Of a stretch of 64,000 nt of DNA, positions 11,442 to 40,228 are shown piece by piece. Positions within the stretch are counted from its first letter, which is position 1. The number at the start of each line of letters is the position of its first letter. The stretch is from an uncultured Candidatus Saccharibacteria bacterium (GTDB lineage Bacteria > Patescibacteriota > Saccharimonadia > Saccharimonadales > Saccharimonadaceae). Made by a program: the position numbers and the translations under genes. The stretch lies in NCBI GenBank assembly GCA_963747455.1, contig CAVVEW010000001.1, forward strand, positions 32,005-96,004. The letters are read 5' to 3'. Below the pieces are notes generated by a model. That model searched no databases. It saw nothing but the letters and a program-made list of their open reading frames with translations, and was not told the origin of the DNA.

Positions 11442-12113
11442 ATGATATCTGCTCTAAAAAACCTTATTTTACCCGACTACTGTTGCTCTTGCGGTGATAT
11501 TGGCGCAATTATATGTGAAAATTGTAAATATGACATCGTTTCTGATATTCCTCAGCTTTGCGTTGCCTGCCGAGTGCCGCAAAGTCGTGATGGTGTGTGT
11601 GGATCGTGCGCCCTCCCCTATACTCACTCCTGGTACGTCGGTGACCATCGAGGGGCGCTGGAGTCTCTTGTCGCTGTGAGTAAGTTTAATGCAAACCGCA
11701 GTGGATGCGACGCGCAAGCAGGGCTGATTAACCATATCCTGCCGAGTCTGCCAACTGGTACCGTGATTGTGCCAGTCCCAACGATAGCAAAACACATTCG
11801 ACAGCGAGGTTATGGGCATGCCGAACGCATCGCTAGGCAGCTCGCACGCCTCCGTGGGGTACAGTCGCGACGTGTCGTCGGTCGAAATGCACAGTTTGTT
11901 CAACACGGTGCCAATCGTACGACGCGTCAAAAACAAGCAAAAAGTTCGTACATACTGACAGAGAAGCTCGAGCCGAATGTGACGTATGTGATTGTCGATG
12001 ACGTGTTTACGACTGGCTTTACGACGCAGTATGTTGCGCAAACACTTCGTGATGGAGGCGCGAGTGATGTGTGGGTCGCAGTCACCTCTCGCCAGCCTAT
12101 CGACGAGAAGTGA
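11442..12113 (+). CDS. comF: ComF-family protein (phosphoribosyltransferase domain, ComFC-like)
   Basis: N-terminal Cys clusters (CCSCG..CENC..CVAC..CGSC) plus C-terminal PRTase motif YVIVDDVFTTGFT. Confidence 0.7.
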   Translation: MISALKNLILPDYCCSCGDIGAIICENCKYDIVSDIPQLCVACRVPQSRDGVCGSCALPYTHSWYVGDHRGALESLVAVSKFNANRSGCDAQAGLINHILPSLPTGTVIVPVPTIAKHIRQRGYGHAERIARQLARLRGVQSRRVVGRNAQFVQHGANRTTRQKQAKSSYILTEKLEPNVTYVIVDDVFTTGFTTQYVAQTLRDGGASDVWVAVTSRQPIDEK

Positions 12114-12151
12114 TAGATTTGCTATAATTCACCGAGTGTCACGCACTTTAT

Positions 12152-12239
12152 GGAGAGGTGACCGAGTGGTTTAAGGTACTTGTCTTGAAAACAAGCGTGG
12201 GGCAACTCACCGCGAGTTCGAATCTCGCCCTCTCCGCCA
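12152..12239 (+). tRNA. tRNA-Ser (anticodon TGA)
   Basis: GGAGAGG acceptor, anticodon stem-loop CTTGT-CTTGAAA-ACAAG, long variable arm, T-arm GCGAG-TTCGAAT-CTCGC, encoded CCA. TATAAT at 12123-12128. Confidence 0.9.
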
Positions 12240-12241
12240 AG

Positions 12242-12271
12242 AAAAATGCAGATCGTTTGGTCTGCATTTTT
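12242..12271 (+). terminator. terminator after tRNA-Ser(TGA)
   Basis: AAAAATGCAGA tcgtttgg TCTGCATTTTT. Confidence 0.65.
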
Positions 12272-12435
12272 CTTGCCCGCACTTCAACAAGTATAAACCC
12301 GGAAACCGCAGCACGAATGCTAACGATTTCCGGGGGTGGGTGTAGTGGAGCCGAGACGGGGCGCATATCTGCACGGCATCTGGCCTGACTTCACCTCACC
12401 TATCGTGGCTATCCACCACGCTATTCAAAAGTATA

Positions 12436-12831
12436 CTAGACGTTTGTTCCCGACGTGCTGCCAGGCGCAAAGCTACCGATTACAAAGTTGACGGCTGCGT
12501 AGGCTAGGATTGCGACCACGATACCGATGATTGCATACAAAATTGTATTTTTTGCCGCGGTAATCTGGTTTGAGTCACCACCCGAGAGAACGTAGCGCAT
12601 ACCACCGATGACAATCATGATGACGGCGATTGCTCCGATGATGAAGAGTAGAACATTGGTGATAGTTGAGAAGGTGCCATTTGCTCCGAAAAGTTCAACT
12701 GGTTGACCCTGGCCACGAGCTGCGTTTGCTCCATTTTGCACACCATCGACTGCATAGACGCCAGGAGCGAGGTAGAGTGAGGTTGCGGATATGACGGCGA
12801 GGCTGAGGACTGCTGATAATAGCGTTTTCAT
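12436..12831 (-). CDS. VirB2/TrbC-like T4SS pilin paralogue P7 (stand-alone copy)
   Basis: 131-aa ORF with a signal peptide ending PGVYA. Core LLFIIGAIAVIMIVIGGMRYVLSGGDSNQITAAKNTILYAIIGIVVAILAYAAVNFV. Protein is near-identical to P6 in the core, with many synonymous nucleotide differences. Confidence 0.7.
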   Translation of the reverse strand: MKTLLSAVLSLAVISATSLYLAPGVYAVDGVQNGANAARGQGQPVELFGANGTFSTITNVLLFIIGAIAVIMIVIGGMRYVLSGGDSNQITAAKNTILYAIIGIVVAILAYAAVNFVIGSFAPGSTSGTNV

Positions 12832-12981
12832 GATTTCACGACTCCTTTGGAATTATGCTTCGATTATTGCACAGAGCGGAGTCCGTGTCGAGGTCTGAAA
12901 CTGTTTTATCAGAGAGAGGAGTATGCTATACTTACTCGAGCCAGAGCCTGTAATAAGGCTCAAAAATTCATAATGGAGTGT

Positions 12982-13113
12982 CCAGGTGGCTGCTGCGTGA
13001 AACGTAAATAATCGACGGTTATTGTCCCGAAACGTTACGTACATGCAGGAGTTACGTGGAAACGAAACTTCACAATTTGGCTAAGCGCCCAGGTGGCTGC
13101 TGCGTGAAACGTA
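12982..13113 (+). repeat. two exact 25-nt direct repeats (107-bp period), resembling the tRNA-Ser(GCT) D-arm
   Basis: CCAGGTGGCTGCTGCGTGAAACGTA at 12982-13006 and 13089-13113. Compare tRNA CCCAAGTGGCTG at 13197-13208. The first copy is preceded by GGAGTGT, which looks like an acceptor stem. Confidence 0.6.
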
Positions 13114-13187
13114 CGTTATGAGACGGTTACCGTCCCCTGTGTACAAGTGTTTTGCAGAAGCCACAAGAAAGCGTTACCAAAACAATT

Positions 13188-13280
13188 GGAGGAGTACCCA
13201 AGTGGCTGAAGGGGACGGTTTGCTAAATCGTTAGTGTGGGGAGACCTGCAGCGGGAGTTCGAATCTCCCCTCCTCCGCCA
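13188..13280 (+). tRNA. tRNA-Ser (anticodon GCT)
   Basis: GGAGGAG acceptor, anticodon loop TTGCTAA, long variable arm, T-arm GGGAG-TTCGAAT-CTCCC, encoded CCA. Confidence 0.9.
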
Positions 13281-13321
13281 AATAAAATAGAGTAGTGCGG
13301 CTGCACTACTCTATTTTATTT
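13281..13321 (+). terminator. 19-bp perfect hairpin after tRNA-Ser(GCT)
   Basis: AAATAAAATAGAGTAGTGC ggct GCACTACTCTATTTTATTT (13280-13321). Confidence 0.6.
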
Positions 13322-13330
13322 GCTTCGGAA

Positions 13331-13427
13331 GTTCGGCGAAGCGCGGTGCAGAAACAAAAGCAGCGTTAGCTATTTTTGTTTCAAGCAAGCGGAGGAGCGA
13401 GCAAAGTGAGCGATATCTCCCCTCCTC
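13331..13427 (+). repeat. tRNA-linked repeat E1: pseudo 3'-half of tRNA-Ser(GCT) split in the T-loop
   Basis: GTTCG + 79-nt insert (GCGAAGCGCGGTGCAG...CAAGCAAGCGGAGGAGCGAGCAAAGTGAGCGAT) + ATCTCCCCTCCTC. The last 13 nt repeat tRNA positions 13263-13275. Confidence 0.6.
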
Positions 13428-13449
13428 TCGAATCTGCTATGATTGAACT

Positions 13450-13815
13450 ATGAACATCTACGTTTCTCACTCTAGTGGCTATGACTATGCAACAGAGCTC
13501 TACAAACCTCTAAAAGATACACTGGCTCATGAGCACACGGTATATTTTCCCCATGATCCCGGCAATGATGGCAGCAAATCTAAGGAAATTTTGCTACAGA
13601 GCGATGTATTGCTGGCTGAAGTTTCCTACCCGTCCACGGGCCAAGGTATCGAGCTGGGGTGGGCCGACGATTCACATATGACGATCATAGTTTTTTACCG
13701 ATCTGACGCCACTCCTTCTAGCTCGATAGCACATATCGCAAGCAAGTCGTTCGCGTACGGCACCACAGAGCAGATGGTTGAGCGGCTGACCGAGGCAATC
13801 CTTTCGCTCAAATAA
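13450..13815 (+). CDS. nucleoside 2-deoxyribosyltransferase-like family protein
   Basis: 121 aa. Pattern IYVSHSS...DVLLAEVSYPSTGQGIELGWA resembles the Rossmann-like fold signature (AE.s.pS.G.G.ELG.A) of the nucleoside deoxyribosyltransferase-like superfamily. -10 TATGAT lies 6 nt before the ATG. Confidence 0.4.
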   Translation: MNIYVSHSSGYDYATELYKPLKDTLAHEHTVYFPHDPGNDGSKSKEILLQSDVLLAEVSYPSTGQGIELGWADDSHMTIIVFYRSDATPSSSIAHIASKSFAYGTTEQMVERLTEAILSLK

Positions 13816-13839
13816 TCCTTCTCATGCTATAATTATTTC

Positions 13840-14671
13840 ATGCAGCCGCAAGAGCAAAATCCTGGTGAGCAACCGCAGCCACAGCCATCCGCTGACTGGC
13901 AGCAGCCGACAGCCCCTGTTGCACCAGAGGCAGCTCTGCCGGCCCCTCAAGCTGTGCCCGTTCAAACTCCCGTGACTCCTCCCCAGCCGCAACCTGTCCA
14001 ACCTGCAGCACCTCAAGTCGTGCCGACGCCTGAGCAGCTTAGTGCCCCAGCTCCAGAGCTTCCCGTGCAGGCAACTCCAGTCGCACAGCCTGTCGCGGCT
14101 CCCGAGCCTGCCGCTACGCAAGCGTTACCAGAACAAGATCAAGGACTTGAGCAGGTATATCAAGCAGATGAAACAGCTGAAGCAACTGACGAAGGTGAAT
14201 ATACTGGCGACGAGGAACTCGTGCGCTGGCAAGCTACCGAGCATATCCACCGCGAAAAAACCGCCATATGGTATGGAATTTTCGGCGTAGTTGTCCTCGT
14301 GCTCATCGCACTGGCTATCTTTTTGGTAAAATCATGGACATTTGCCGTCCTCGTCCCTGTCATGGCAGCAGCACTCATCATCTATGCACGTCGCCCACCA
14401 GCCGTACTCGACTACACTCTCAGCCGAAAAGGCCTGCACGTCAATGATCGCCTGTATGAATTTGAACTTTTCAAAGAATTTGGACTTGGTACACGATGAC
14501 GACGAGAACGCAGTGTCTTTGGTGCCGCGTAAACGATTCCAACCGAGCCTAACCGTCTACTTCCCCGACGAAGTCGGTGAAGCGGTCGTCGATATGTTTG
14601 CCGCGCGCCTGCCTATGCATGAAGTTCGGCTTGATCCTATCGATCGCTTGATTCGCCGCCTCCATATCTAA
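13840..14671 (+). CDS. membrane protein with P/Q-rich N-terminus (frameshifted near 14490)
   Basis: ORF 13840-14499 (two TM helices WYGIFGVVVLVLIALAIFLV, FAVLVPVMAAALIIY) continues in ORF 14342-14671 (..VHDDDENAVSLVPRKRFQPSLTVYFPDEVGEAVVDMF..). TATAAT 13828-13833 lies 6 nt before the ATG. Confidence 0.45.
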
Positions 14672-14728
14672 TCTTGCAGCTCACCCCTGTTTGTGGTACA
14701 CTTACTCGAGTTGCGATACAACATTTAT

Positions 14729-14805
14729 GCACCCGTAGCTCAGCTGGATAGAGCATCGGCTTGCGGAGCCGAAGGCCATAGGTTCGAATCCTGTCGGGTG
14801 TACCA
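14729..14805 (+). tRNA. tRNA-Arg (anticodon GCG)
   Basis: GCACCCG acceptor, D-arm TAGCTCAGCTGGATAGAGC, anticodon stem-loop TCGGC-TTGCGGA-GCCGA, T-arm ATAGG-TTCGAAT-CCTGT, encoded CCA. Confidence 0.85.
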
Positions 14806-14874
14806 AGAAAAATGACTCATCAAAAGATGGGTCGTTTTTCTTGGTAGCATTCTGCAAGAATGCGAGAACCGTAA

Positions 14875-14971
14875 GGTTCGGCGAAGCGTAGTGCAGCGAG
14901 AAAAGCGCGAAGCATTTTTCGAGCAAGCAAGCGGAGAAGCGAGCAACGCGACCGCTATCCTGTCGGGTGTA
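14875..14971 (+). repeat. tRNA-linked repeat E2: pseudo 3'-half of tRNA-Arg split in the T-loop
   Basis: GGTTCG + 76-nt insert (GCGAAGCGTAGTGCAG...CAAGCAAGCGGAGAAGCGAGCAACGCGACCGCT) + ATCCTGTCGGGTGTA. The last 15 nt repeat tRNA positions 14788-14802. Confidence 0.6.
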
Positions 14972-15032
14972 AAAGAACATTTTAGTTCCACTATCATCAG
15001 CTATGGTCATTTGTACGTAAAAAGAGTGATAG

Positions 15033-15740
15033 CTAAAAATCCTCAGATTTATAGACGGTGTCATTTTCCGAGAACCACATTTGGCTACCTGTGAGCCTAT
15101 TCAGCATTTCTACACAAGAATCAAATCGCTTTTCCTGAGCAGCTAACTCATCAGTTGTCATCCACTGAGCTTTCGCGTATGGCCAGTGACTAGGTTCCTC
15201 ACCTTGCCATTCTGCTTCAAACACAACAAATAGCTTATCTTCGAGTATCGAGGTTGAGGAATTTGAGTAATCTCTTTGACGGTAAAAACCTTTCAGTGCT
15301 AGTCGAGCTGTTAGACCAGTTTGCTCACGCAAGCCACGAGACGCGGCCTCATCAAACGATTCCCCCCAACGCACTGGCTGACCAATTACACCCCAGTATC
15401 CATAATATGGCTGCCGTAGGCGTTGATGGAACAAGTACTCAATGTTTCCTGTATCTGAGTTGGTCCGCTTAACATACGTTGCTGTGGTCAGTTTTGGCTG
15501 ACGGATAGGAGCACGGTTTTCGTAGTCGAACCGATTCGCGAATTCTTTACCCTCGGGTGTTAATTCATATACCCCTTCGTCATTTTTCATCACCAAACCT
15601 AAGTTAACGAGCTTTCTCAAGTGAAATTTAAAATCGTCGCTTGTTAAATCAGTAACTGCCATCATCTCGGAAAACCGACGTGATGGATAGTGAGATAATT
15701 CCCTCAGTACGCTTACCTGTAATTTGTGTAATTCGTTCAC
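15033..15740 (-). CDS. winged-helix + NUDIX hydrolase domain protein
   Basis: The N-terminus LQVSVLRELSHYPSRRFSEMMAVTDLTSDDFKFHLRKLVNLGLV is wHTH-like. Nudix box GQPVRWGESFDEAASRGLREQTGL. GTG start 7 nt after TATAAT (15748-15753). Confidence 0.6.
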   Translation of the reverse strand: MNELHKLQVSVLRELSHYPSRRFSEMMAVTDLTSDDFKFHLRKLVNLGLVMKNDEGVYELTPEGKEFANRFDYENRAPIRQPKLTTATYVKRTNSDTGNIEYLFHQRLRQPYYGYWGVIGQPVRWGESFDEAASRGLREQTGLTARLALKGFYRQRDYSNSSTSILEDKLFVVFEAEWQGEEPSHWPYAKAQWMTTDELAAQEKRFDSCVEMLNRLTGSQMWFSENDTVYKSEDF

Positions 15741-15839
15741 AGTGCCTATTATATTGAAATCTCATTTTATAGCTACTTCGCTTCATAGGGTATATACGCA
15801 CCCTAGCGTGCTTGCATAGAAATAGGTACTATCGAGCGC

Positions 15840-16790
15840 ATGCGTTATATAGCAAATAGAATCTATAATGAATTCTCTGGTACCTCATATGGCCAGAGTT
15901 TGGCGGAATACCCAAGGTATGATCGGTTCATGCCGGAAGGTTGGCTCGTGGACCAATGGGGGCTACTCATGGGTGACGACATGAATAACTTGTACCATAT
16001 GAGAGAAACGATTGAAAACGCGTGCTGGTTAATTGAAAATGAAAACCAGATTCAACCAGGTACGTTCTCTTTTGAGGATGCAGTGAAACTCACAATCACT
16101 GCTGCCCTACACGATCAAGGCGAAGCGATTGTTGGAGATATTGAGTATGGACGCAAAACCGCCGATAAAGAAATGGCTGAACGTACCGCTTTACGAGACT
16201 ACGAATCTGTGTTTGTACCGGGATTGAGCGGACGAGCACTTGATATATATCGTATTGGCCGCGACGAAATTGCGTTTGGTGATAAAAACGAAAAATTGCC
16301 AGGGGCATTTACTACCATTGAACTTATAGGATTCATCAACAATACGTTGCGTGCTCTTCAGCAACTAAGACGGTTAAGCGGAGTAGATATGTCTGATCGA
16401 AAGCTGATGGCAATGGGAATCCGAAATGATTCTGATCGCCACACTGCAAGAGAGGTTCTTGAGCGTTTAGTCGCTGAAGTACTGGGTAGTGGAGTGCTCG
16501 AAATGTTAATACGTATGGCTAATCGCTATTCTGGAGCGAACCAGTACCTAAAGGCGCATTCGAGTGAGATAAGTTTAGGATTTAATCAAATAAGTCAAAA
16601 AGCGTTTGATTGGTACGAATCCGAAGATCCAGGCGCGGTTGAAGGCGAAAAAAGTAGTCGCATAGAAAAGTTCAATCGCCAAAAATTAATTTGGGAGCGA
16701 TGGTCAGATTCTGAAAATGTAGCCACAATTTCACGGCTAGGAGTTACTGCTACAACTGACGCCTTGTCAGAAATCGGTGATTCAATGTGA
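15840..16790 (+). CDS. HD-domain phosphohydrolase (YfbR/5'-deoxynucleotidase-like)
   Basis: 316 aa. AALHDQGEAIVGDI matches the HD...GD metal-binding signature of HD_3/YfbR-type enzymes. TACTAT lies 7 nt before the ATG. Confidence 0.5.
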   Translation: MRYIANRIYNEFSGTSYGQSLAEYPRYDRFMPEGWLVDQWGLLMGDDMNNLYHMRETIENACWLIENENQIQPGTFSFEDAVKLTITAALHDQGEAIVGDIEYGRKTADKEMAERTALRDYESVFVPGLSGRALDIYRIGRDEIAFGDKNEKLPGAFTTIELIGFINNTLRALQQLRRLSGVDMSDRKLMAMGIRNDSDRHTAREVLERLVAEVLGSGVLEMLIRMANRYSGANQYLKAHSSEISLGFNQISQKAFDWYESEDPGAVEGEKSSRIEKFNRQKLIWERWSDSENVATISRLGVTATTDALSEIGDSM

Positions 16791-16854
16791 TGCTTGCAAA
16801 TTAGGGTATTACATTACCCTATATTATGGCTACGACGTGTGTTTTAATGATGGT

Positions 16855-17775
16855 ATGAGTGAACAATTTCCTAGCACAAGCCCAATTGATGAACCAGTAG
16901 AGAGCTCTATAGACCATACGTCGTCGCATGAGCAGCTCGATTTGGAGGTACCTTTGCCAGAGGAGATACAGCGCCTGATGGATTTGATGCACGACCGTAA
17001 TCTTGAGCATCTCCCTACTATGGAGCATCGTACAAATCACTTATTCTTGGGGCACGCGGGAATCGGAGGTTTACTGACCCAACCAAAATTTGACCAGGAC
17101 CCAGAAAGGCGCAAAGAGCTCCTTAGGATTGACGTTGCAAAAACCTACCTTCGCATACTGACATTGGCTGAAGCACTGGGCACTCCCGATGAATTTACTG
17201 CTAAGTTTGTAGAGCAATACGAAAAATGTCATAGATGCGGTCAAAACCCATGCGTCTGCAACCCCAGTGAGGCCGGTTTTGAAAGTGAGCAACCTACTGC
17301 AACTGAGATACATGCAGGATCAAGCCTTTCTGAATGGCAGGCACACCTCAAAAGGTTGTACGGGGGCAATAATGCACTACGCGACCTAGAGTGGATGGGC
17401 TTAAAGCTTGGCGCCGAGCTGGGTGAATCAATCACAGAGGTAACGCGAATGCAGAAAGCCATTCAGGCTGGCGGTAGCCCGGAGCAAGTAGAAGAATATC
17501 GACAGAGAGCTCTCGAAGAGCTAGCTCAAGTCACCGCATGGCTCCTTGGCATATGTGTTCACCCTGACGCGCGTCTTAACAATCAGGAAATAAATCTTGA
17601 ACAAATCCTGGTAGATTTATACGGCGATGGCTGCCCTAACTGTGGTCAGATGCCGTGCCAATGCGGACCATTCGGACTCGAGGAAACCCGCAAAGATGAG
17701 ACAGCGCCAGTATTACTAGAAATACTTAGGATGAAAGATGAGCAACGAGCTTCGGCACAAAGTGTTGATGCATGA
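16855..17775 (+). CDS. tandem MazG-like (all-alpha NTP pyrophosphohydrolase-like) protein with two CxxCGQxPCxC knuckles
   Basis: Start taken at MSEQFPSTSP (ATG 16855). Two helical modules (..RIDVAKTYLRILTLAEALG.. and ..LGAELGESITEV..EELAQVTAWLLGI..) end in KCHRCGQNPCVC and GCPNCGQMPCQC respectively. Confidence 0.35.
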   Translation: MSEQFPSTSPIDEPVESSIDHTSSHEQLDLEVPLPEEIQRLMDLMHDRNLEHLPTMEHRTNHLFLGHAGIGGLLTQPKFDQDPERRKELLRIDVAKTYLRILTLAEALGTPDEFTAKFVEQYEKCHRCGQNPCVCNPSEAGFESEQPTATEIHAGSSLSEWQAHLKRLYGGNNALRDLEWMGLKLGAELGESITEVTRMQKAIQAGGSPEQVEEYRQRALEELAQVTAWLLGICVHPDARLNNQEINLEQILVDLYGDGCPNCGQMPCQCGPFGLEETRKDETAPVLLEILRMKDEQRASAQSVDA

Positions 17776-17850
17776 AATCCGGTGAGCAGCCGAAGAAACT
17801 TAATGCCCGCATTGAGTACATTGGAAAAGCAACTATTCTTCGATGAGATT

Positions 17851-17887
17851 AGCGCCATCCTGTCGGGAAAACAAGCGGAGGAGCGAG
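17851..17887 (+). repeat. orphan fragment of the tRNA-linked repeat (tRNA-Arg 3'-end copy plus repeat core)
   Basis: AGCGCC-ATCCTGTCGGG (17857-17867 repeats the tRNA-Arg 3' segment), then AAAA-CAAGCGGAGGAGCGAG (17872-17887, identical to 13386-13401). Confidence 0.55.
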
Positions 17888-17928
17888 TCTGGATAAAGCG
17901 CCTTTCTATGAAATGATATACTCAGCAT

Positions 17929-18235
17929 ATGATCAAATCCCATGCCTCCCCTGACTACATATGCCCAATCTGCGTAGGTTTGCGCGAAGAAAATAAACGA
18001 CAATACACTTATTCGACCGAGCGATATCGTGTATCGCGATGAACGCGTGACTGTACTTATCAATTCATTCTTTATGGGCAAGAATGCCGGTCATGTCATC
18101 ATCGTTCCAAATGAACATATCGAAACCGAGCCGTCATACGAGGCTGTAATGACATCTATGAACTCCCCGAAGAGCATGACACCATATCTGAACTGGAATG
18201 CCGCAAAGCAAATGCGCACTAGTGCAGGCGATTAG
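17929..18235 (+). pseudogene. HIT-family-like gene, disrupted (several frame changes; 3' end uncertain)
   Basis: ATG 17929 gives MIKSHASPDYICPICVGLREENK. A shifted frame gives ..LIRPSDIVYRDERVTVLINSFFMGKNAGHVIIVPNEHIE (ORF 18029-18235). No intact HxHxH motif was found downstream in any frame. Confidence 0.35.
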
Positions 18236-18593
18236 GACAGCGTACGAATGCAGACGGCATCACTCAAGCCGAGATAATGAGGCCAGAAAACTGGTCGATC
18301 ACAGCATACCTTTTATTTTCAACCTTGCAGCGTGATCAGACAGTTCAACTACTCAAAAAATCGTTCGACGATGGATCACATCACTCCGAGCTTAGTCTAT
18401 AAAAGCGCCTGGCCCCACGAGAGCGGCAGCTATATCCGAGAAGCTAGCACAGCCGTTCTACGAGACTTGTTCTAGGTTCAACTGCTACGAATCATACACT
18501 ATTCGGAGTAAAACAGTGGGTAATAATTGTTGTTGTATTTCCTTGACAGCCAGGCGTACAATAACACTAGCAGCTGAACATAAAGGAGGATGT

Positions 18594-19016
18594 ATGCGCG
18601 GACCAATTGACTACATAATTGTGGGGTTCGAAGGGAATACCTTCGATGGAAGCATACTAAAAGCTATCGGCGACGCACTCGACCAAGGCGTCATTGCGCT
18701 CGTTGACCTTCTCGTCGTCAGCAAAGACGAAAATGGCGCTGTCAGGGCGCTGGATGTTGCCTCTACTGGCGATGAATTTGCAGTAAGCTTCGTACAGAAG
18801 TACAAACCGGGTGAAAGTCACGTCAACGATGACGACAAAGACGAAATCGGCGACTTGCTCGAGAACAATACGACCGCAGGCATGCTCGTTATCGAGCAAC
18901 TCTGGGCGATTCCGCTCAAGCAAGCCCTTATAGATGCAAATGGTGTACTGGTCGCGGAGGGTCGAATTCACCCTGAAGCGGCAGAAGAATTTAATGTCGA
19001 AGAAGAGGAGGAATAA
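18594..19016 (+). CDS. DUF6325-like protein
   Basis: AAGGAGGA then ATG 18594. GPIDYIIVGFEGNTFDGSILKAIGDALDQGVIALVDLLVVSKDENGAVRALDV resembles the family usually found next to SHOCT proteins. Assignment is from memory only. Confidence 0.4.
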   Translation: MRGPIDYIIVGFEGNTFDGSILKAIGDALDQGVIALVDLLVVSKDENGAVRALDVASTGDEFAVSFVQKYKPGESHVNDDDKDEIGDLLENNTTAGMLVIEQLWAIPLKQALIDANGVLVAEGRIHPEAAEEFNVEEEEE

Positions 19017-19017
19017 G

Positions 19018-19278
19018 ATGCCGGGATTATTACGAGGGGTAGCGAGAACGGCTGTCATAGCAGGAACCGCTACGGCAGTATCGAACAACGTCAGTCGGCG
19101 TCAAGCGCGGCGCTGGTCTGATCAGCAAGCCGAAGCGCAGCCACAGATGGAGGCAGCGCCGCCCGAGCCAGCTAATGATATGGTCTCTGAGCTGCAGCAG
19201 CTCGCACAGCTAAAAGATCAGGGCATCCTGACTCAAGAAGAATTCGACGCCAAGAAAAAGCAGATTCTTGGTATCTGA
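19018..19278 (+). CDS. SHOCT-domain protein
   Basis: GAGGAGGA then ATG 19018. N-terminal TM-like segment, C-terminal LQQLAQLKDQGILTQEEFDAKKKQILG, which is the SHOCT motif. Confidence 0.6.
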   Translation: MPGLLRGVARTAVIAGTATAVSNNVSRRQARRWSDQQAEAQPQMEAAPPEPANDMVSELQQLAQLKDQGILTQEEFDAKKKQILGI

Positions 19279-19299
19279 TAGACGTAGTGTGCTCTATGC

Positions 19300-19329
19300 A
19301 AAACGTCGCCTGGGCAAGGCGACGTTTTT
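19300..19329. terminator. bidirectional terminator
   Basis: AAAACGTCGCC tgggca AGGCGACGTTTT between convergent genes. Confidence 0.65.
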
Positions 19330-19349
19330 AGTATGGTATGGAAGAATGG

Positions 19350-19496
19350 TTACGCTCGGGCGCGGACAGCATGTACGGGTATATCGACTGCTTGGTCGCG
19401 AAGACGAAGCTGGTTCAGGCGGCGGCGGTGGTACTGTGACGCCAGTCGACGGATGCGAAATTTTGGACTAGTGAATTTACGTTTCGTATCTGCCAT
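19350..19496 (-). CDS. hypothetical 48-aa Arg-rich ORF
   Basis: MADTKRKFTSPKFRIRRLASQYHRRRLNQLRLRDQAVDIPVHAVRARA. Its ATG lies 2 nt after the upstream TAA (GTGTAATCATGG). Below the ORF-track cutoff. Confidence 0.3.
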   Translation of the reverse strand: MADTKRKFTSPKFRIRRLASQYHRRRLNQLRLRDQAVDIPVHAVRARA

Positions 19497-19498
19497 GA

Positions 19499-19678
19499 TT
19501 ACACTCCTGGTTGTGGTACACCAAAGAAATAGTTGATTTCGTCGATGATGCGACCGCGCTGATAGACGGGGACTTTTCGTGGTCGTATGTCTACGTCGTT
19601 TAGCTCAGGGAATTTGCGTGATTTTGATGCCATGAATTTTTTGATTCGAGCATCTGTTACCATATCTACTCTTTTCAT
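19499..19678 (-). CDS. hypothetical 59-aa ORF
   Basis: AGGTGGAGAATC then ATG 19678. MKRVDMVTDARIKKFMASKSRKFPELNDVDIRPRKVPVYQRGRIIDEINYFFGVPQPGV. One residue below the ORF-track cutoff. Confidence 0.4.
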   Translation of the reverse strand: MKRVDMVTDARIKKFMASKSRKFPELNDVDIRPRKVPVYQRGRIIDEINYFFGVPQPGV

Positions 19679-19815
19679 GATTCTCCACCTCTTCTTGCGT
19701 TAACAATACCCGTAGTATAGCTAGGCTCGCAAGGGAACACTGTAAAAAATGTCACATAAAAACACAATCACGATTCGTATGTGAGAAACTCTCGACTTTT
19801 TGTTACTATACGAGA

Positions 19816-20268
19816 ATGACAATACAGTATATCTGTCGAGGCAATGCCTTTCGAAGTATCATGGCTGAAGCATATACAAACTCTCTACACATCCCCGGTG
19901 TGGAAGTGTTATCGAGTGGTACTATTGCAACCCGCGCTAAACACGGAAACATCGCGCGCTTTCCGATGACGCTCGATGTTCTATCGGAGCATGGAATCCA
20001 AAAGTACGCCAAGGATCACTATGCGGATGATTTGACCCAGGAATTACTCGATCGCTCAGATGTTGCCGTATTCGTAAATGACCGAGCATACCAGGAGGCA
20101 GCAACTACCTACCGTATGCCGCGGCAAGTCTACATATGGGATATTACGGATATTGGCGAAGGCGACCGAGTTGCGCATTCATTGACCGAAGAGCAGCACT
20201 TCAGTGAAATAATTTTCGGTGAGATCAAGCAAAACATCGACGAGCTCGTAAAGCAATTAGGCTTGTAA
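19816..20268 (+). CDS. low-molecular-weight phosphotyrosine phosphatase / ArsC-like
   Basis: P-loop CRGNAFRS (CX5R-S) at residues 7-14. 150 aa. TACTAT lies 6 nt before the ATG. Confidence 0.7.
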   Translation: MTIQYICRGNAFRSIMAEAYTNSLHIPGVEVLSSGTIATRAKHGNIARFPMTLDVLSEHGIQKYAKDHYADDLTQELLDRSDVAVFVNDRAYQEAATTYRMPRQVYIWDITDIGEGDRVAHSLTEEQHFSEIIFGEIKQNIDELVKQLGL

Positions 20269-20745
20269 GCGCCCGTTATTGACATGTATATACTCACGCA
20301 AGCCGGCTTCGCCGCGCTGCATTATACGGTGATGAAAGAATGTAAAGAGAGGCCGGAGCAAAAAAGATAGTCTCTGCATCCACGCTTTCGTCGTGACAAC
20401 GTTCCAGGTGATGACAATCGTGGTGGGTGTGCTTGGTGTGGTATCTGTGGCGTGAATCATGAAGCTTCCCTTTCCGACTAAGTCTCCGTCTGAGTCGAAG
20501 TAGATGTGGCGAGCCTTTTCGTATTCGGTGACAGTGATGTCGGTTCTGAGTCTATAGCCACCTCCACTTTTCCAGGTGCATATATAGCGCGAACCGGCTC
20601 CGTGCACTTCGTCTAAAATTTCGACAGATTCGAGTCCCGCCCACCAGCTTTGCCAGTCCTCACTGCGGAGGATTGCTTCGGAAACTACCTCGCGAGAAGC
20701 GGGGATTGTCCAGGTGTGGGTGAACTCGTATTCGGCTGGCTGCAT
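20257..20745 (-). CDS. SRPBCC (START/polyketide-cyclase-like) family protein
   Basis: 162 aa. Size and W-rich pattern (SEDWQSWWAGLESVEI...) are typical of SRPBCC proteins. Weak assignment. Confidence 0.4.
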   Translation of the reverse strand: MQPAEYEFTHTWTIPASREVVSEAILRSEDWQSWWAGLESVEILDEVHGAGSRYICTWKSGGGYRLRTDITVTEYEKARHIYFDSDGDLVGKGSFMIHATDTTPSTPTTIVITWNVVTTKAWMQRLSFLLRPLFTFFHHRIMQRGEAGLREYIHVNNGRLQA

Positions 20746-20811
20746 AGAAGCATATTGTAGCGAAGCTTGCTATGATTTTCCAGGGGTAGTGTGAGAAAAT
20801 AAGTACGAATA

Positions 20812-20903
20812 TGGCGGAGAGGAAGAGATTCGAACTCTCGGTACGAGTCGCCCCGTACACACGCTTTCCAAGCGTGCGCCTTCAACCGCTCGGCCACCTC
20901 TCC
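20812..20903 (-). tRNA. tRNA-Ser (anticodon GGA)
   Basis: Minus strand reads GGAGAGGTGGCCGAGCGGTTGAAGGCGCACGC-TTGGAAA-GCGTG..., long variable arm, GAGAG-TTCGAAT-CTCTT, CCA. Confidence 0.9.
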
Positions 20904-21065
20904 ATAGTTTCCTATTGTACAAAATTCATTCGACTCATACGAGCCCAATAGACAGGCGCAGCGCCGCGTGCTCCTATCGCTTAGCTCTTCCGCCTCCTCA
21001 CCGACAAATAAGTAAACTTATTGTCGATTTCGCTCGGCTCCACCAACCGCTCGGCCACCTCTCCA
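20904..21065 (-). repeat. repeat upstream of tRNA-Ser(GGA) ending in a 22-nt copy of the tRNA 5' end
   Basis: CAACCGCTCGGCCACCTCTCCA at 20883-20904 (tRNA 5' end, plus strand) recurs at 21044-21065. The interval contains GGCGGAAGAGCTAAGCGAT, related to the E-repeat core, and a second degenerate copy GTGGAGCCGAGCG. Confidence 0.5.
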
Positions 21066-21147
21066 TTAGAACCTAGTATACACGAGTGAAAAATACATCA
21101 CGGTCATGGTTGCTCTCGTTGCAATTGGCAGTGATAATAGATAGAAT

Positions 21148-22008
21148 ATGCCGACCAAAAAACCTATTATCCGTTTGAACGGTCTCGTAAAAAAGTACGG
21201 GATTGGTGACGCTGAGCACCGAGCACTCGATACGGTCGATTTATCGATCGATGCGGGTGAGTTCGTGGCTATCATGGGGCCGTCGGGATGCGGCAAGACG
21301 ACGCTACTCAATATCTTGGGTCTGCTCGACCGTGCAGATGATGGCGAATACCTACTCGACAACGAGGACGTTGAGCAATTCTCTGATCGGCGCCGTGCAC
21401 ACGTTCGCTCAAAACAAATCGGCATCGTATTTCAAAACTTCAACCTGATTGATCGCATGACCGTAATCGAAAACGTCGCCCTTCCTCTGACCTATCATGG
21501 TTTGCGGCGTACAAAGCGCCTCGAAGCTGCGAGCCAATCGCTCAAGACATTTCATCTCTCTGAGCGAGAGTATTATCTGCCCCATCAGCTATCTGGTGGA
21601 CAAATGCAACGCGTGGCGATCGCACGTGCGCTCGTAAACAAGCCTACCCTCATCTTGGCCGACGAGCCAACTGGTAATCTCGACAGCCGCTCAAGTCACG
21701 TCATCATGGAAGAGCTAGCGGATTTGCACCGTCGTGGAAACACAATTCTTATGGTGACTCATAATCCCAATCTAACAAGTTATGCGAGTCGTGTAATCAA
21801 CATGCTCGATGGTCGTGTGGCGAGTGACAAGAAGATTCGGGTTTCGGCGGTATCGGATGTCCAGAAGATTACGCTCCGTACACCGAAGAAGACGAAAGCC
21901 GAGGAAAAGCCTACGAAAAAAGCGACGAGTAAGAAAAAGTCGACCAAGACCGCAACAAAGAAGCGAGTGACCGCAAAAAATGCGAAGAAAAAGGAGAAAA
22001 CGTCGTGA
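21148..22008 (+). CDS. ABC transporter ATP-binding protein (MacB/LolD-like) with Lys-rich C-terminal tail
   Basis: Walker [10 protein letters not shown], signature [15 protein letters not shown], Walker [13 protein letters not shown]. 60-aa K/T-rich tail. Confidence 0.85.
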
Positions 22009-39926: not shown

Positions 39927-40014
39927 GGAGAGGTGCAGGAGTGGTTGAACTGGCCGCTCTCGAAAAGCGGTAAGCCGCAAGGTTTCGAGGGTTCGAATCC
40001 CTCTCTCTCCGCCA
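39927..40014 (+). tRNA. tRNA-Ser (anticodon CGA)
   Basis: GGAGAGG acceptor, anticodon stem-loop CCGCT-CTCGAAA-AGCGG, long variable arm, T-arm GAGGG-TTCGAAT-CCCTC, CCA. Terminator hairpin at 40018-40058. Confidence 0.9.
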
Positions 40015-40093
40015 TGAGAAAACGTCTCGTCGGGCTTTCGTCCTAACGAGACGTTTTCTTTTTGTCAGAAAAGAGAAGGGATTTGAACCCAGG

Positions 40094-40186
40094 GGTTCGT
40101 GAAGCGAGCGATGCGAAGTATCGCGTGCGGAAATAGGAAGCCCCGCTACTCGCGGGCGCGACCGCTATCCCTCTCTCTCCGCCATG
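40094..40186 (+). repeat. tRNA-linked repeat E3: pseudo 3'-half of tRNA-Ser(CGA) split in the T-loop
   Basis: GGTTCG + 67-nt insert (TGAAGCGAGCGATGCGAAG...CGCGGGCGCGACCGCT) + ATCCCTCTCTCTCCGCCATG. The last 20 nt repeat 39997-40016. Confidence 0.6.
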
Positions 40187-40215
40187 CAAAACGACCCAGA
40201 AATGGGTCGTTTTGC
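40186..40215. terminator. 13-bp perfect hairpin, bidirectional terminator
   Basis: GCAAAACGACCCA gaaa TGGGTCGTTTTGC. Confidence 0.6.
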
Positions 40216-40228
40216 ATAATGTGGACTG

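Follow-up and report, generated by a model that had tools for sequence, protein, structure and literature searches.

Genomic islands that tyrosine integrases insert at tRNA genes through att sites in the T-loop/3' end, together with their integrase-less derivatives that build up in tandem, the cis-mobilizable elements (CIMEs) derived from the integrative and conjugative elements (ICEs) of S. thermophilus, are among the closest described counterparts of the locus analyzed here. The locus is an islet of three genes next to a tRNA-Arg(GCG) gene in 64,000 nucleotides of DNA from an uncultured Candidatus Saccharibacteria bacterium (GenBank assembly GCA_963747455.1, contig CAVVEW010000001.1, positions 32,005 to 96,004; this whole stretch is hereafter the window), and it is associated with a family of short repeated elements behind tRNA genes, which we call E units. 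The E family resembles the tRNA islands and CIMEs in that the tRNA gene is restored and its 3' end is repeated at the far junction, in the stacking of insertions at one tRNA gene, and in the existence of members that have att-like ends but no recombinase. In contrast to the islands and CIMEs, it has no cognate integrase in the 41 genomes compared, and one family occurs at many different tRNAs. The E units also differ from known att sites by a 75-nt terminal core and a hairpin derived from the target, and their cargo-less members are only about 150-230 bp long.

Hypervariable islands located by tRNA genes and accompanied by repeated partial tRNA 3' ends were reportedly described in Prochlorococcus by Coleman and co-workers in 2006. 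The resemblance to the present locus lies in the streamlined genome, the strain-specific cargo behind tRNAs, the multiple copies of the 3' end and the usual absence of an integrase, whereas the Prochlorococcus islands extend over tens of kb and have been ascribed to integrases of phages. To our knowledge, no conserved miniature element with a fixed junction between tRNA positions 58 and 59 has been described in them. Saccharibacteria have tiny genomes and seemingly few mobile elements, yet their strains differ in accessory genes.

The assembly (G000) amounts to 918 kb in seven contigs with a G+C content of 49%, and the window corresponds to C1:32005-96004. It was compared with 40 relatives, including eight other species of its genus, giving a set of 41 genomes over which a sequence model of the conserved E core (R1) was run. 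The DNA 3' of all 40 tRNA genes in G000 was scanned for copies of tRNA ends. Junction statistics were obtained from 31 units in 15 genomes, and the anatomy of the units from an alignment of 25 loci of 14 other genomes with the units of G000.

A transferable islet at tRNA-Arg(GCG)

A sequence-only reading of the window had proposed that the islet is bracketed by direct repeats of the tRNA-Arg 3' end, and exact copies of this end were confirmed at three positions. The 11-mer ATCCTGTCGGG occurs exactly three times in the 64-kb window, at 14788, 14957 and 17857, compared to a chance expectation of ~0.03 for an exact 11-mer in 64 kb on both strands, and at the first two positions the match is longer, namely the 15-mer ATCCTGTCGGGTGTA. 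An E-repeat core had been placed immediately after the third copy, and this also holds: CAAGCGGAGGAGCGAG is identical at 13386-13401 and 17872-17887 and is present with one mismatch at 14928-14943, and none of 100 shuffles gave five matches to it. The exact counts, the shuffles and the tRNA-end copies found across the genome (below) rule out chance as the source of the repeats. The second of the three copies (14957-14971) forms the right end of a small element of its own, the E unit E2, located between tRNA-Arg and the islet (Table 1). In the left part of E2, GAACC-GTAA-GGTTCG represents an inverted and a direct copy of the start of the T-arm, degenerate at this locus. On the other side of the islet, TTAGCGCC lies directly 5' of the third copy and resembles the E right-end motif RAGCGMT, and the core fragment at 17872-17902 may be the remnant of an older unit.

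Table 1. Coordinates, strand and supporting evidence of the features of the window (position 1 is the first nucleotide of the window).
Feature	Position	Strand	Evidence
tRNA-Ser(GCT) unit: terminator, E1 core (13331-13414), copy of tRNA positions 59-71 (13415-13427)	13188..13427	+	
tRNA-Arg(GCG), insertion target	14729..14805	+	ARAGORN; Rfam tRNA 68.7 bits
Repeat copy 1 (tRNA-Arg positions 59-73)	14788-14802	+	Exact match
Terminator hairpin straight after tRNA-Arg; stem takes in the ACCA end	14801..14846	+	Inverted repeat, fold
E2 left part: hairpin GCATTCT-GCA-AGAATGC, then GAACC-GTAA-GGTTCG	14847..14880	+	Sequence, fold, 30 other units
E2 core: GGTTCG-GCGAAGC, A/T-rich hairpin, then CAAGCAAGCGGAGAAGCGAG...GACCGCT	14875..14956	+	R1 60.1 bits, E 1.8e-17; nhmmer
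Repeat copy 2 (tRNA-Arg positions 59-73)	14957..14971	+	E2 right end and islet left junction
Islet cargo, G+C 0.42-0.45 vs ~0.49	14972..17856	.	Absent from 40 relatives; 96% in L178
Winged-helix + NUDIX hydrolase gene (ORF1), 235 aa	15033..15740	-	PF00293 3.4e-10; HTH_45 5e-5; PHROG 1198
Rare all-helical protein gene (ORF2), 316 aa	15840..16790	+	Invariant residues, fold model
Rare helical protein gene (ORF3), 306 aa, two CxxC..PCxC knuckles	16855..17775	+	Alignment
Repeat copy 3 (tRNA-Arg positions 59-69), islet right junction	17857..17867	+	Exact match
Further E-core fragment CAAGCGGAGGAGCGAG...AAAGCGCC, no tRNA copy behind	17872..17902	+	Sequence reading
tRNA-Ser(CGA) unit: terminator, inverted and direct T-arm copies, variant E core	39927..40218	+	Best preserved in window

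The comparison of the tRNA-Arg flank among relatives that the sequence-only reading had suggested was carried out, and the islet DNA (14990-17860) was missing from 40 of 40, including the eight species of the same genus. The interval between tRNA-Arg(GCG) and the convergent tRNA-Ser(GGA) gene measures 6.0 kb in the window and 1.6 kb in G006, where it holds two unrelated genes and where tRNA-Arg bears neither the islet, the repeat nor an E unit. G003, G007 and G021 have other cargo in this interval.

Contig L178, from another sample, matched positions 14921-17833 of the window at 96% identity. The contig begins in the right half of E2, with the decayed copy ACCCTGTCGACTAC, and its similarity to the window breaks after 17833, ~25 nt before the third copy, with only TTAGCGC-ATCC.G.C in common beyond. 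The next alignable flank (18109-18403) is 74% identical, this being the only flank available for comparison and lying in a HIT-like pseudogene region that is decaying. Between the two organisms, therefore, the islet is much more similar than its flank. In a third organism (contigs L179-181) the gene order is Nudix (83% DNA identity), an ORF3 homologue (69%) and an ORF2-like gene, and the block lies between two perfect copies of CGTTCGAATCGTGCCGGGTGTACCAA, 26 nt that correspond to tRNA-Arg positions 52-76 plus one base. A different terminator follows each copy, and no E core was found in L179-181. The left copy belongs to the tRNA, since a proper T stem continues leftward from it; the right copy diverges at position 51.

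The junctions in the window and in L179 are shared. The sequence after the second copy in the window (AAAGAAC...) is similar to that after the tRNA end in L179 (AAAGAAA...), and GAGATTAGCGCC before the third copy matches GAGTTCGCC before the right copy in L179, indicating that the islet is bounded by tRNA-Arg 3'-end repeats in two independent contexts. The islet transfers as a module. As in tRNA islands, repeats are found at both junctions (15 nt and 11 nt in the window, 26 nt in L179), and the block is present in some and absent from other close relatives at one tRNA; a cognate integrase, another hallmark of such islands, is not encoded in it. The attL/attR-like geometry noted in the sequence-only reading is therefore supported in essence, by the absence in relatives, the L178 module and the L179-181 repeats.

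Anatomy of the E units

The order of parts in a unit is the tRNA gene, a strong terminator that has the ACCA end in its stem, a short spacer, a long hairpin, the core and the copy of the tRNA. The 5' arm of the long hairpin is the reverse complement, and the 3' arm a direct copy, of approximately positions 45-57 of the neighboring tRNA, and often a small conserved hairpin, YTTTTGC-NNN-GCAAAAR, forms its cap. The core of ~75 nt consists of GCGNAGC, an A/T-rich hairpin whose sequence varies, CAAGCGGAGGAGCG and GCGNAGC again, and it ends in GAT. The right end is a direct copy of the tRNA from position 59, which in intact units is exactly 18 nt long (59-76), through CCA. This copy started at position 59 (+/-1) in 26 of the 31 units and extended exactly to A76 in 14 of them (17-19 nt through CCA); the remaining copies were shortened, decayed, or spurious short matches. 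The data establish the anatomy of the unit and a junction fixed to a single base, at 58/59. Several intact units are followed by a second terminator, which at one tRNA-Met is a diverged copy of the first with compensating changes. At tRNA-Ser(CGA) in the window, a perfect 18-nt copy of positions 59-76 (40167-40184) is likewise followed by a second terminator.

In about one-third of the units, the left hairpin had arms specific to the local tRNA. Ranked against ~29 tRNAs, the local tRNA was in the top three for the direct arm in 8 of the 31 units and for the inverted arm in 10 of the 31, compared to ~3 expected, and in the other units, including one at the tRNA-Arg of the window, only GGTTCG is left of the arms. 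The left hairpin was more stable than shuffled sequence with a mean z of -2.9 (21/30 below -2), and the inner hairpin with a mean z of -1.8. G.U-type pairs in the left hairpin numbered 58 on the tRNA-sense strand versus 7 on the opposite strand, indicating that the structure matters when single-stranded, on the tRNA-sense strand. Folds were computed per sequence; an RNAalifold consensus fold of the E alignment gave no pairs, the hairpins being out of register. Only tRNAs were over threshold when window positions 11500-21500 were searched with Rfam, and E1 and E2 were unmatched even at E <= 5.

Two other readings of the units were considered and rejected. A fold-back duplication at the terminator does not agree with fresh units, which invert only positions 45-57, or with the terminator-side stretch, which bears no relation to the tRNA. 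An opposite-strand tRNA-like gene is discounted since the T-arm and acceptor parts are not kept.

Distribution of E units among tRNA genes and genomes

An E element lies 3' of about 11 of the 40 tRNA genes in G000, and the E-repeat profile identified 13 copies in this genome. Nine tRNA genes (Ser-GCT, Arg-GCG, Ser-CGA, Arg-CCT, Glu-TTC, Gln-TTG, two Met and Trp) have an exact 12-21-nt copy of their own 3' end 135-180 nt downstream; Tyr and Gln-CTG have shorter 8-nt copies, and Gln-CTG has an additional 15-nt copy 965 nt downstream. The R1 core was present in 18 of the 41 genomes with 1-13 copies each, namely in eight of the nine genomes of the genus (G000 included), in several other genera of the family and in other families of the order; G002 had zero copies. 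The core was 65-100 nt behind a tRNA gene in almost every locus that was fetched, and among these tRNAs were Trp, four Ser, two Gln, Val, Asp, Met, Arg-TCT, Arg-GCG, Tyr and Glu-CTC. The tRNA-Arg(GCG) gene carries a unit in G000, G005 and G007, a displaced unit in G003, and none in G006.

Both the tRNA ends and the cores vary between loci. The tRNA-Ser(GGA) gene has three different 3' sequences in G007, G029 and G020, and in each of the three the unit pairs a perfect 18-nt copy of the resident 3' sequence with a different core variant. One core variant was recovered at both Ser-CGA and Glu-TTC in G000 and another at both Arg-TCT and Glu-CTC in G021 (support of 95 and 98 for the G000 and G021 pairs), while other cores group by tRNA across genomes (Met, Trp). 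These groupings indicate that cores have been both inherited and moved or converted between tRNA loci, with flanks that always fit the local tRNA, and they demonstrate the movement of E variants between tRNA loci.

The pattern scan of the whole genome collection returned mostly chance matches in GC-rich genomes, and, none of the matches having been inspected individually, only the Saccharibacteria/Saccharimonadia records were taken as likely true E elements. A full-text literature search found no description of E units, which is weak evidence of novelty. The E family is apparently undescribed and Saccharibacteria-wide.

Partial tRNA copies that break in the D-loop were also observed. On the minus strand at 20966-21082, 5' of tRNA-Ser(GGA), a second copy of the promoter and of tRNA positions 1-21 is followed by an E-like core (21043-20976) and then by positions 23-32 of tRNA-Ser(GGA). 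The core at this place replaces A22 in the D-loop GGTTG^A, in parallel with A58 in the T-loop GGTTCG^A58. At 12977-13113, upstream of tRNA-Ser(GCT), the 5' part of this gene is present as two incomplete copies in tandem (..CCAGGTGGCTG|CTGCGTGAAACGTA) that break at one shared D-loop position, and a similar copy in G007 (L026) indicates that the feature is conserved in the genus.

Cargo-bearing and stacked units

Other tRNA genes carry larger or multiple insertions. At tRNA-Gln(CTG) of G000 (C7:57205-58242) a full unit with the 8-nt copy is followed by a 760-nt G+C-rich insert, which is closed by the right half of the core and the 15-nt copy of the tRNA end. Two complete Trp-type units are present at the end of C6 (C6:128246-130550), 1.3 kb apart with small genes between them; both have a remnant of the tRNA-Trp end on the left and no tRNA gene. 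The tRNA-Trp gene lies with its own unit at the start of C7 (C7:1-2300). C6 and C7 probably abut, and this would give a stack of three units. In G003, tRNA-Arg(GCG) is followed by a terminator, a truncated core and 3.2 kb of cargo with six genes (deoxyribosyltransferase-like, hydrolase, cupin, SDR, HAD and NUDIX), and beyond the cargo lie GTGTACCA, a terminator, a full core and ATCCTGTCGGGT. No recombinase is encoded in the cargo of G003, C6 or C7.

The 760-nt insert on C7 contains one 131-aa open reading frame (ORF) with no Pfam match and has its own terminator; its G+C content is far above that of the genome, and it may come from a high-G+C organism. The cargo of the C6/C7 stack includes small membrane-protein genes and a gene for a 231-aa Cys-rich protein. 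Behind the E unit of tRNA-Ser(GCT), the window has a nucleoside 2-deoxyribosyltransferase-like gene at 13450-13815 (weak Pfam hit), and the homologue in G003 (L053:1921-) is the first cargo gene behind tRNA-Arg(GCG). Its presence in both suggests a single accessory gene that occupies different tRNA slots in two species.

Search for a mobilizing enzyme

The statement in the sequence-only reading that no integrase remains was borne out, as none of the islet genes is a recombinase. The single Xer-like enzyme of G000 is encoded on the same contig, ~140 kb away, by a gene that adjoins ndk and is ~1 kb from the tRNA-Arg(CCT) unit. A tyrosine recombinase was identified in 38 of the 41 genomes, mostly as a single protein of ~310 aa with an Xer-like score, and six genomes have one or two more. 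In G007, G008 and G029 the distance from the Xer-like gene to an E unit is 3-4 kb, which we take to be conserved gene order, and none of the extra recombinases of G023, G029, G034, G037 and G039 adjoins an E unit. The assembly of G000 is 79% complete and a recombinase absent from its contigs may sit in the unassembled part; several complete relatives with E units are likewise without a dedicated recombinase. No dif-like site was found in G000, allowing up to seven mismatches to four known dif sites, and none was found in the E units. The E core had no match in viral contigs.

Transposases did not provide a candidate. TnpB-type genes (PF07282) were present in one of the 41 genomes, and the proposal of a TnpB guide RNA (scaffold plus 18-nt guide, with TTCGA as the target-adjacent motif) was abandoned on this count. 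A system like that of REP-associated tyrosine transposases (RAYT) and repetitive extragenic palindromes (REP) was rejected since the Y1 genes do not co-occur with E, and an IS200/IS605 or TnpB-guided element was rejected since TnpA/TnpB are neither in the element nor track it. IS200/RAYT-like Y1 genes of ~210 aa were seen in G003, G006, G007, G008 and G036, among others, with up to six copies (G036).

Two known systems share part of the geometry of the units. Integrative mobile elements exploiting Xer (IMEX), among them the CTX phage, whose folded single-stranded attP is used by the host XerCD, are alike in having no recombinase of their own and an inverted target-like repeat at one end. They differ in that the target is dif and not a tRNA gene, and no phage genes are present here; the likeness is geometric only. 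The primer-binding site of long terminal repeat (LTR) retroelements is, like the intact E copy, 18 nt long with boundaries identical to tRNA positions 59-76, but it is complementary to the tRNA, whereas the E copy is in the tRNA sense and always beside its own tRNA gene. We treat the matching boundaries as a coincidence in view of this position of the copies and because no reverse transcriptase or other enzyme gene was seen beside the inspected units, reverse transcriptase not having been searched for.

Origin of the islet and the E units

We favor, at a probability of roughly 0.6, the explanation that the interval between tRNA-Arg and tRNA-Ser(GGA) is a hotspot of repeated insertion at the T-loop/3' end of tRNA-Arg, that the E units are a mobile family and that the islet is a cargo-bearing insertion. 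Each insertion would produce the layout tRNA(1-58) / replacement 59-76, terminator, element and core / original 59-76 / original terminator, so that the tRNA stays whole and its 3' end is repeated, in direct orientation, at the far junction. From left to right the window would then hold the cargo-less E2 unit (14806-14956), the Nudix/HD-like/ORF3 islet between the second and third copies, and the remnant of an older unit. The conserved core would act as the right-hand terminal module, with the E units as cargo-less miniatures, and the right end of the islet, TAGCGCC/T before ATCC, would be a core-like motif. Insertion may proceed by site-specific recombination within positions 59-76, with a recombinase supplied in trans either by an unsampled phage or plasmid or as the single Xer-type enzyme of the host. 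Spread from cell to cell would probably rely on natural competence, and the unit nearest the tRNA would be the youngest.

Several observations weigh against this explanation. No recombinase could be linked to any unit or islet, the Y1 transposase genes (PF01797; 11 of the 41 genomes) were uncorrelated with E and never adjacent to it, and neither a circular form nor an empty site was seen in any sample, one metagenome scan for the empty site of L179 having produced no match. A classical integrase scar fails to explain the hairpin of inverted and direct copies of tRNA positions 45-57, and it also leaves the GCGNAGC motifs unexplained. Nor does such a scar explain why a perfect hairpin can stand beside a decayed 59-76 copy, as in the Asp unit of G008 and the Arg unit of G007, or why the E units persist at matching tRNAs across genera, which hints at selection. 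How an element gains the matching segments for a new tRNA is also unexplained. The target-derived hairpin, its persistence and the GCGNAGC motifs point to a single-stranded intermediate or to a function of the unit.

The locus offers a concrete route of gene gain, in which small cassettes are stacked behind tRNAs and bounded by exact tRNA-end copies, and the 75-nt core serves to recognize insertion sites of this kind throughout the class. Movement of the units without a self-encoded recombinase would, if it occurs, represent a new mechanism. The E system could offer a natural method of site-specific insertion for Saccharibacteria, which are hard to engineer. The E units also account for many of the partial tRNA copies and contig breaks in Saccharibacteria assemblies.

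As a tentative proposal, which we regard as possible although we would not bet on it, the E units might be a protein-free mobile element. Such an element would insert after G57 in place of A58 (occasionally in the D-loop), would rebuild the tRNA from a copy of the end that is either brought along or newly made, would present the hairpin and the 75-nt core as the substrate of a host enzyme acting on single-stranded DNA, and would serve as a landing pad for small gene cassettes behind the tRNA genes of the otherwise strongly reduced Saccharibacteria genomes.

Alternatively, the E units could be structured RNAs or cis-elements of the host at tRNA genes, with a role for instance in processing, termination or regulation; the tRNA-end copies would have originated by local duplication and be held in agreement by gene conversion, with the islet located in a recombination-prone spot. 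The core motifs and both hairpins have been retained in different genera and families, with stems that differ in sequence, the hairpins exceed shuffled sequence in stability (mean z -2.9 and -1.8), and the G.U pairs (58 versus 7) are expected of RNA or of a single-strand structure; intact units moreover close with a second terminator and occur at matching tRNAs in different genera. A host function, however, fits poorly with the patchy occupancy (zero copies in G002, 13 in G000, none at the tRNA-Arg of G006) and with the strong terminator that separates the tRNA from a unit for which no promoter was found. Different variants at one orthologous tRNA, one variant at different tRNAs, the existence of cargo-bearing and tandem versions and the lack of a match in Rfam further count against it, and the clean L179 repeats without E would be left unexplained. 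We consider this account unlikely.

It also seems improbable that no site-specific event takes place at present, with the units being old scars and the islets being swapped by homologous recombination after transformation, for which the tRNAs and the E cores would provide the homology. Homologous exchange makes no direct repeats from position 59 to A76, does not produce the perfect 26-nt repeats of L179, and does not account for independent perfect 18-nt copies at differing tRNA-Ser(GGA) genes with different E variants. The absence of a recombinase among our findings, the position of the islet interval between two conserved tRNA genes and the presence of both the right half of E2 and the islet in L178 would agree with such exchange, and relatives of the group are naturally transformable.

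The insertion of folded single-stranded DNA at G57/N59 is the least probable of these alternatives and appears highly doubtful. The hairpin of inverted and direct copies of positions 45-57 and the GCGNAGC mini-hairpins at the two ends of the core would make up a substrate resembling the target, and the host Xer, as for IMEX of the CTX-phage type, or an enzyme of the HUH type would act on DNA acquired through competence. The T-loop insertion point is exact to the base (GGTTCG^A58) and has its parallel in the E-like core that replaces A22 in the D-loop GGTTG^A, the hairpin arms match positions 42-57 of the local tRNA in about one-third of the units, the core starts and ends with GCGNAGC, the genomes mostly have one tyrosine recombinase, and the bias in G.T pairs indicates a single-strand structure on one strand. 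The oligonucleotide d(GCGAAGC) forms an unusually stable DNA mini-hairpin. Xer, however, normally acts at dif and not at tRNA genes, and no dif-like site was found in E or the genome. The occurrence of Y1/HUH transposase genes does not follow that of E, none of the observations shows a single-stranded intermediate directly, and the source of the right tRNA-specific arms is unexplained.

Genes of the islet

The three islet genes had all been read as nucleotide phosphohydrolases, a description that stands for ORF1, is probable for ORF2 and finds no profile or fold match to back it in ORF3. The NUDIX match of ORF1 to PF00293 scored 40.5 bits compared to the curated cut-off of 21.1. ORF2 is probably an HD-type phosphohydrolase, judging from its predicted fold and its invariant residues (H53, H91-D92 and D100 across 10 sequences). 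Its model, with a predicted local distance difference test (pLDDT) score of 86, matched OxsA best (5tk7; probability 0.94, target template-modeling score 0.57, E 0.84, which is not significant), followed by the HD phosphohydrolases lin2634 and DatZ, and none of these matches is statistically significant. ORF2 had no family match in Pfam, NCBIfam or PHROGs, and eight homologues were recovered from a collection of 5.8 billion proteins.

ORF3 is rarer, with three homologues in the same collection. The alignment divides the protein into two halves, both helical and both with a Cys knuckle behind them. No family profile matched ORF3, and its poor model (pLDDT 59) gave no fold match; the fold search placed DCTPP1 at rank 48 with a probability of only 0.11. 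The label 'MazG-like' given to ORF3 in the sequence-only reading is a guess at the level of motifs.

Other observations

The anticodon of the tRNA-Arg gene at 14729-14805 is GCG, as in all relatives examined; the usual bacterial anticodon for such a tRNA-Arg is ACG. The tRNA-Arg(GCG) gene of G003 does not encode the CCA end, which is present in the partial copy within the second unit of that genome. Just to the right of the islet, at 17930-18235, lies a broken HIT-family-like gene with frameshifts and stops (..GHVIIVPNEHIE..). Only the 3' part of this pseudogene is common to L178, with 74% identity, and an intact HIT-type gene is found in G003 at the tRNA-Ser(CGA) of the corresponding region.

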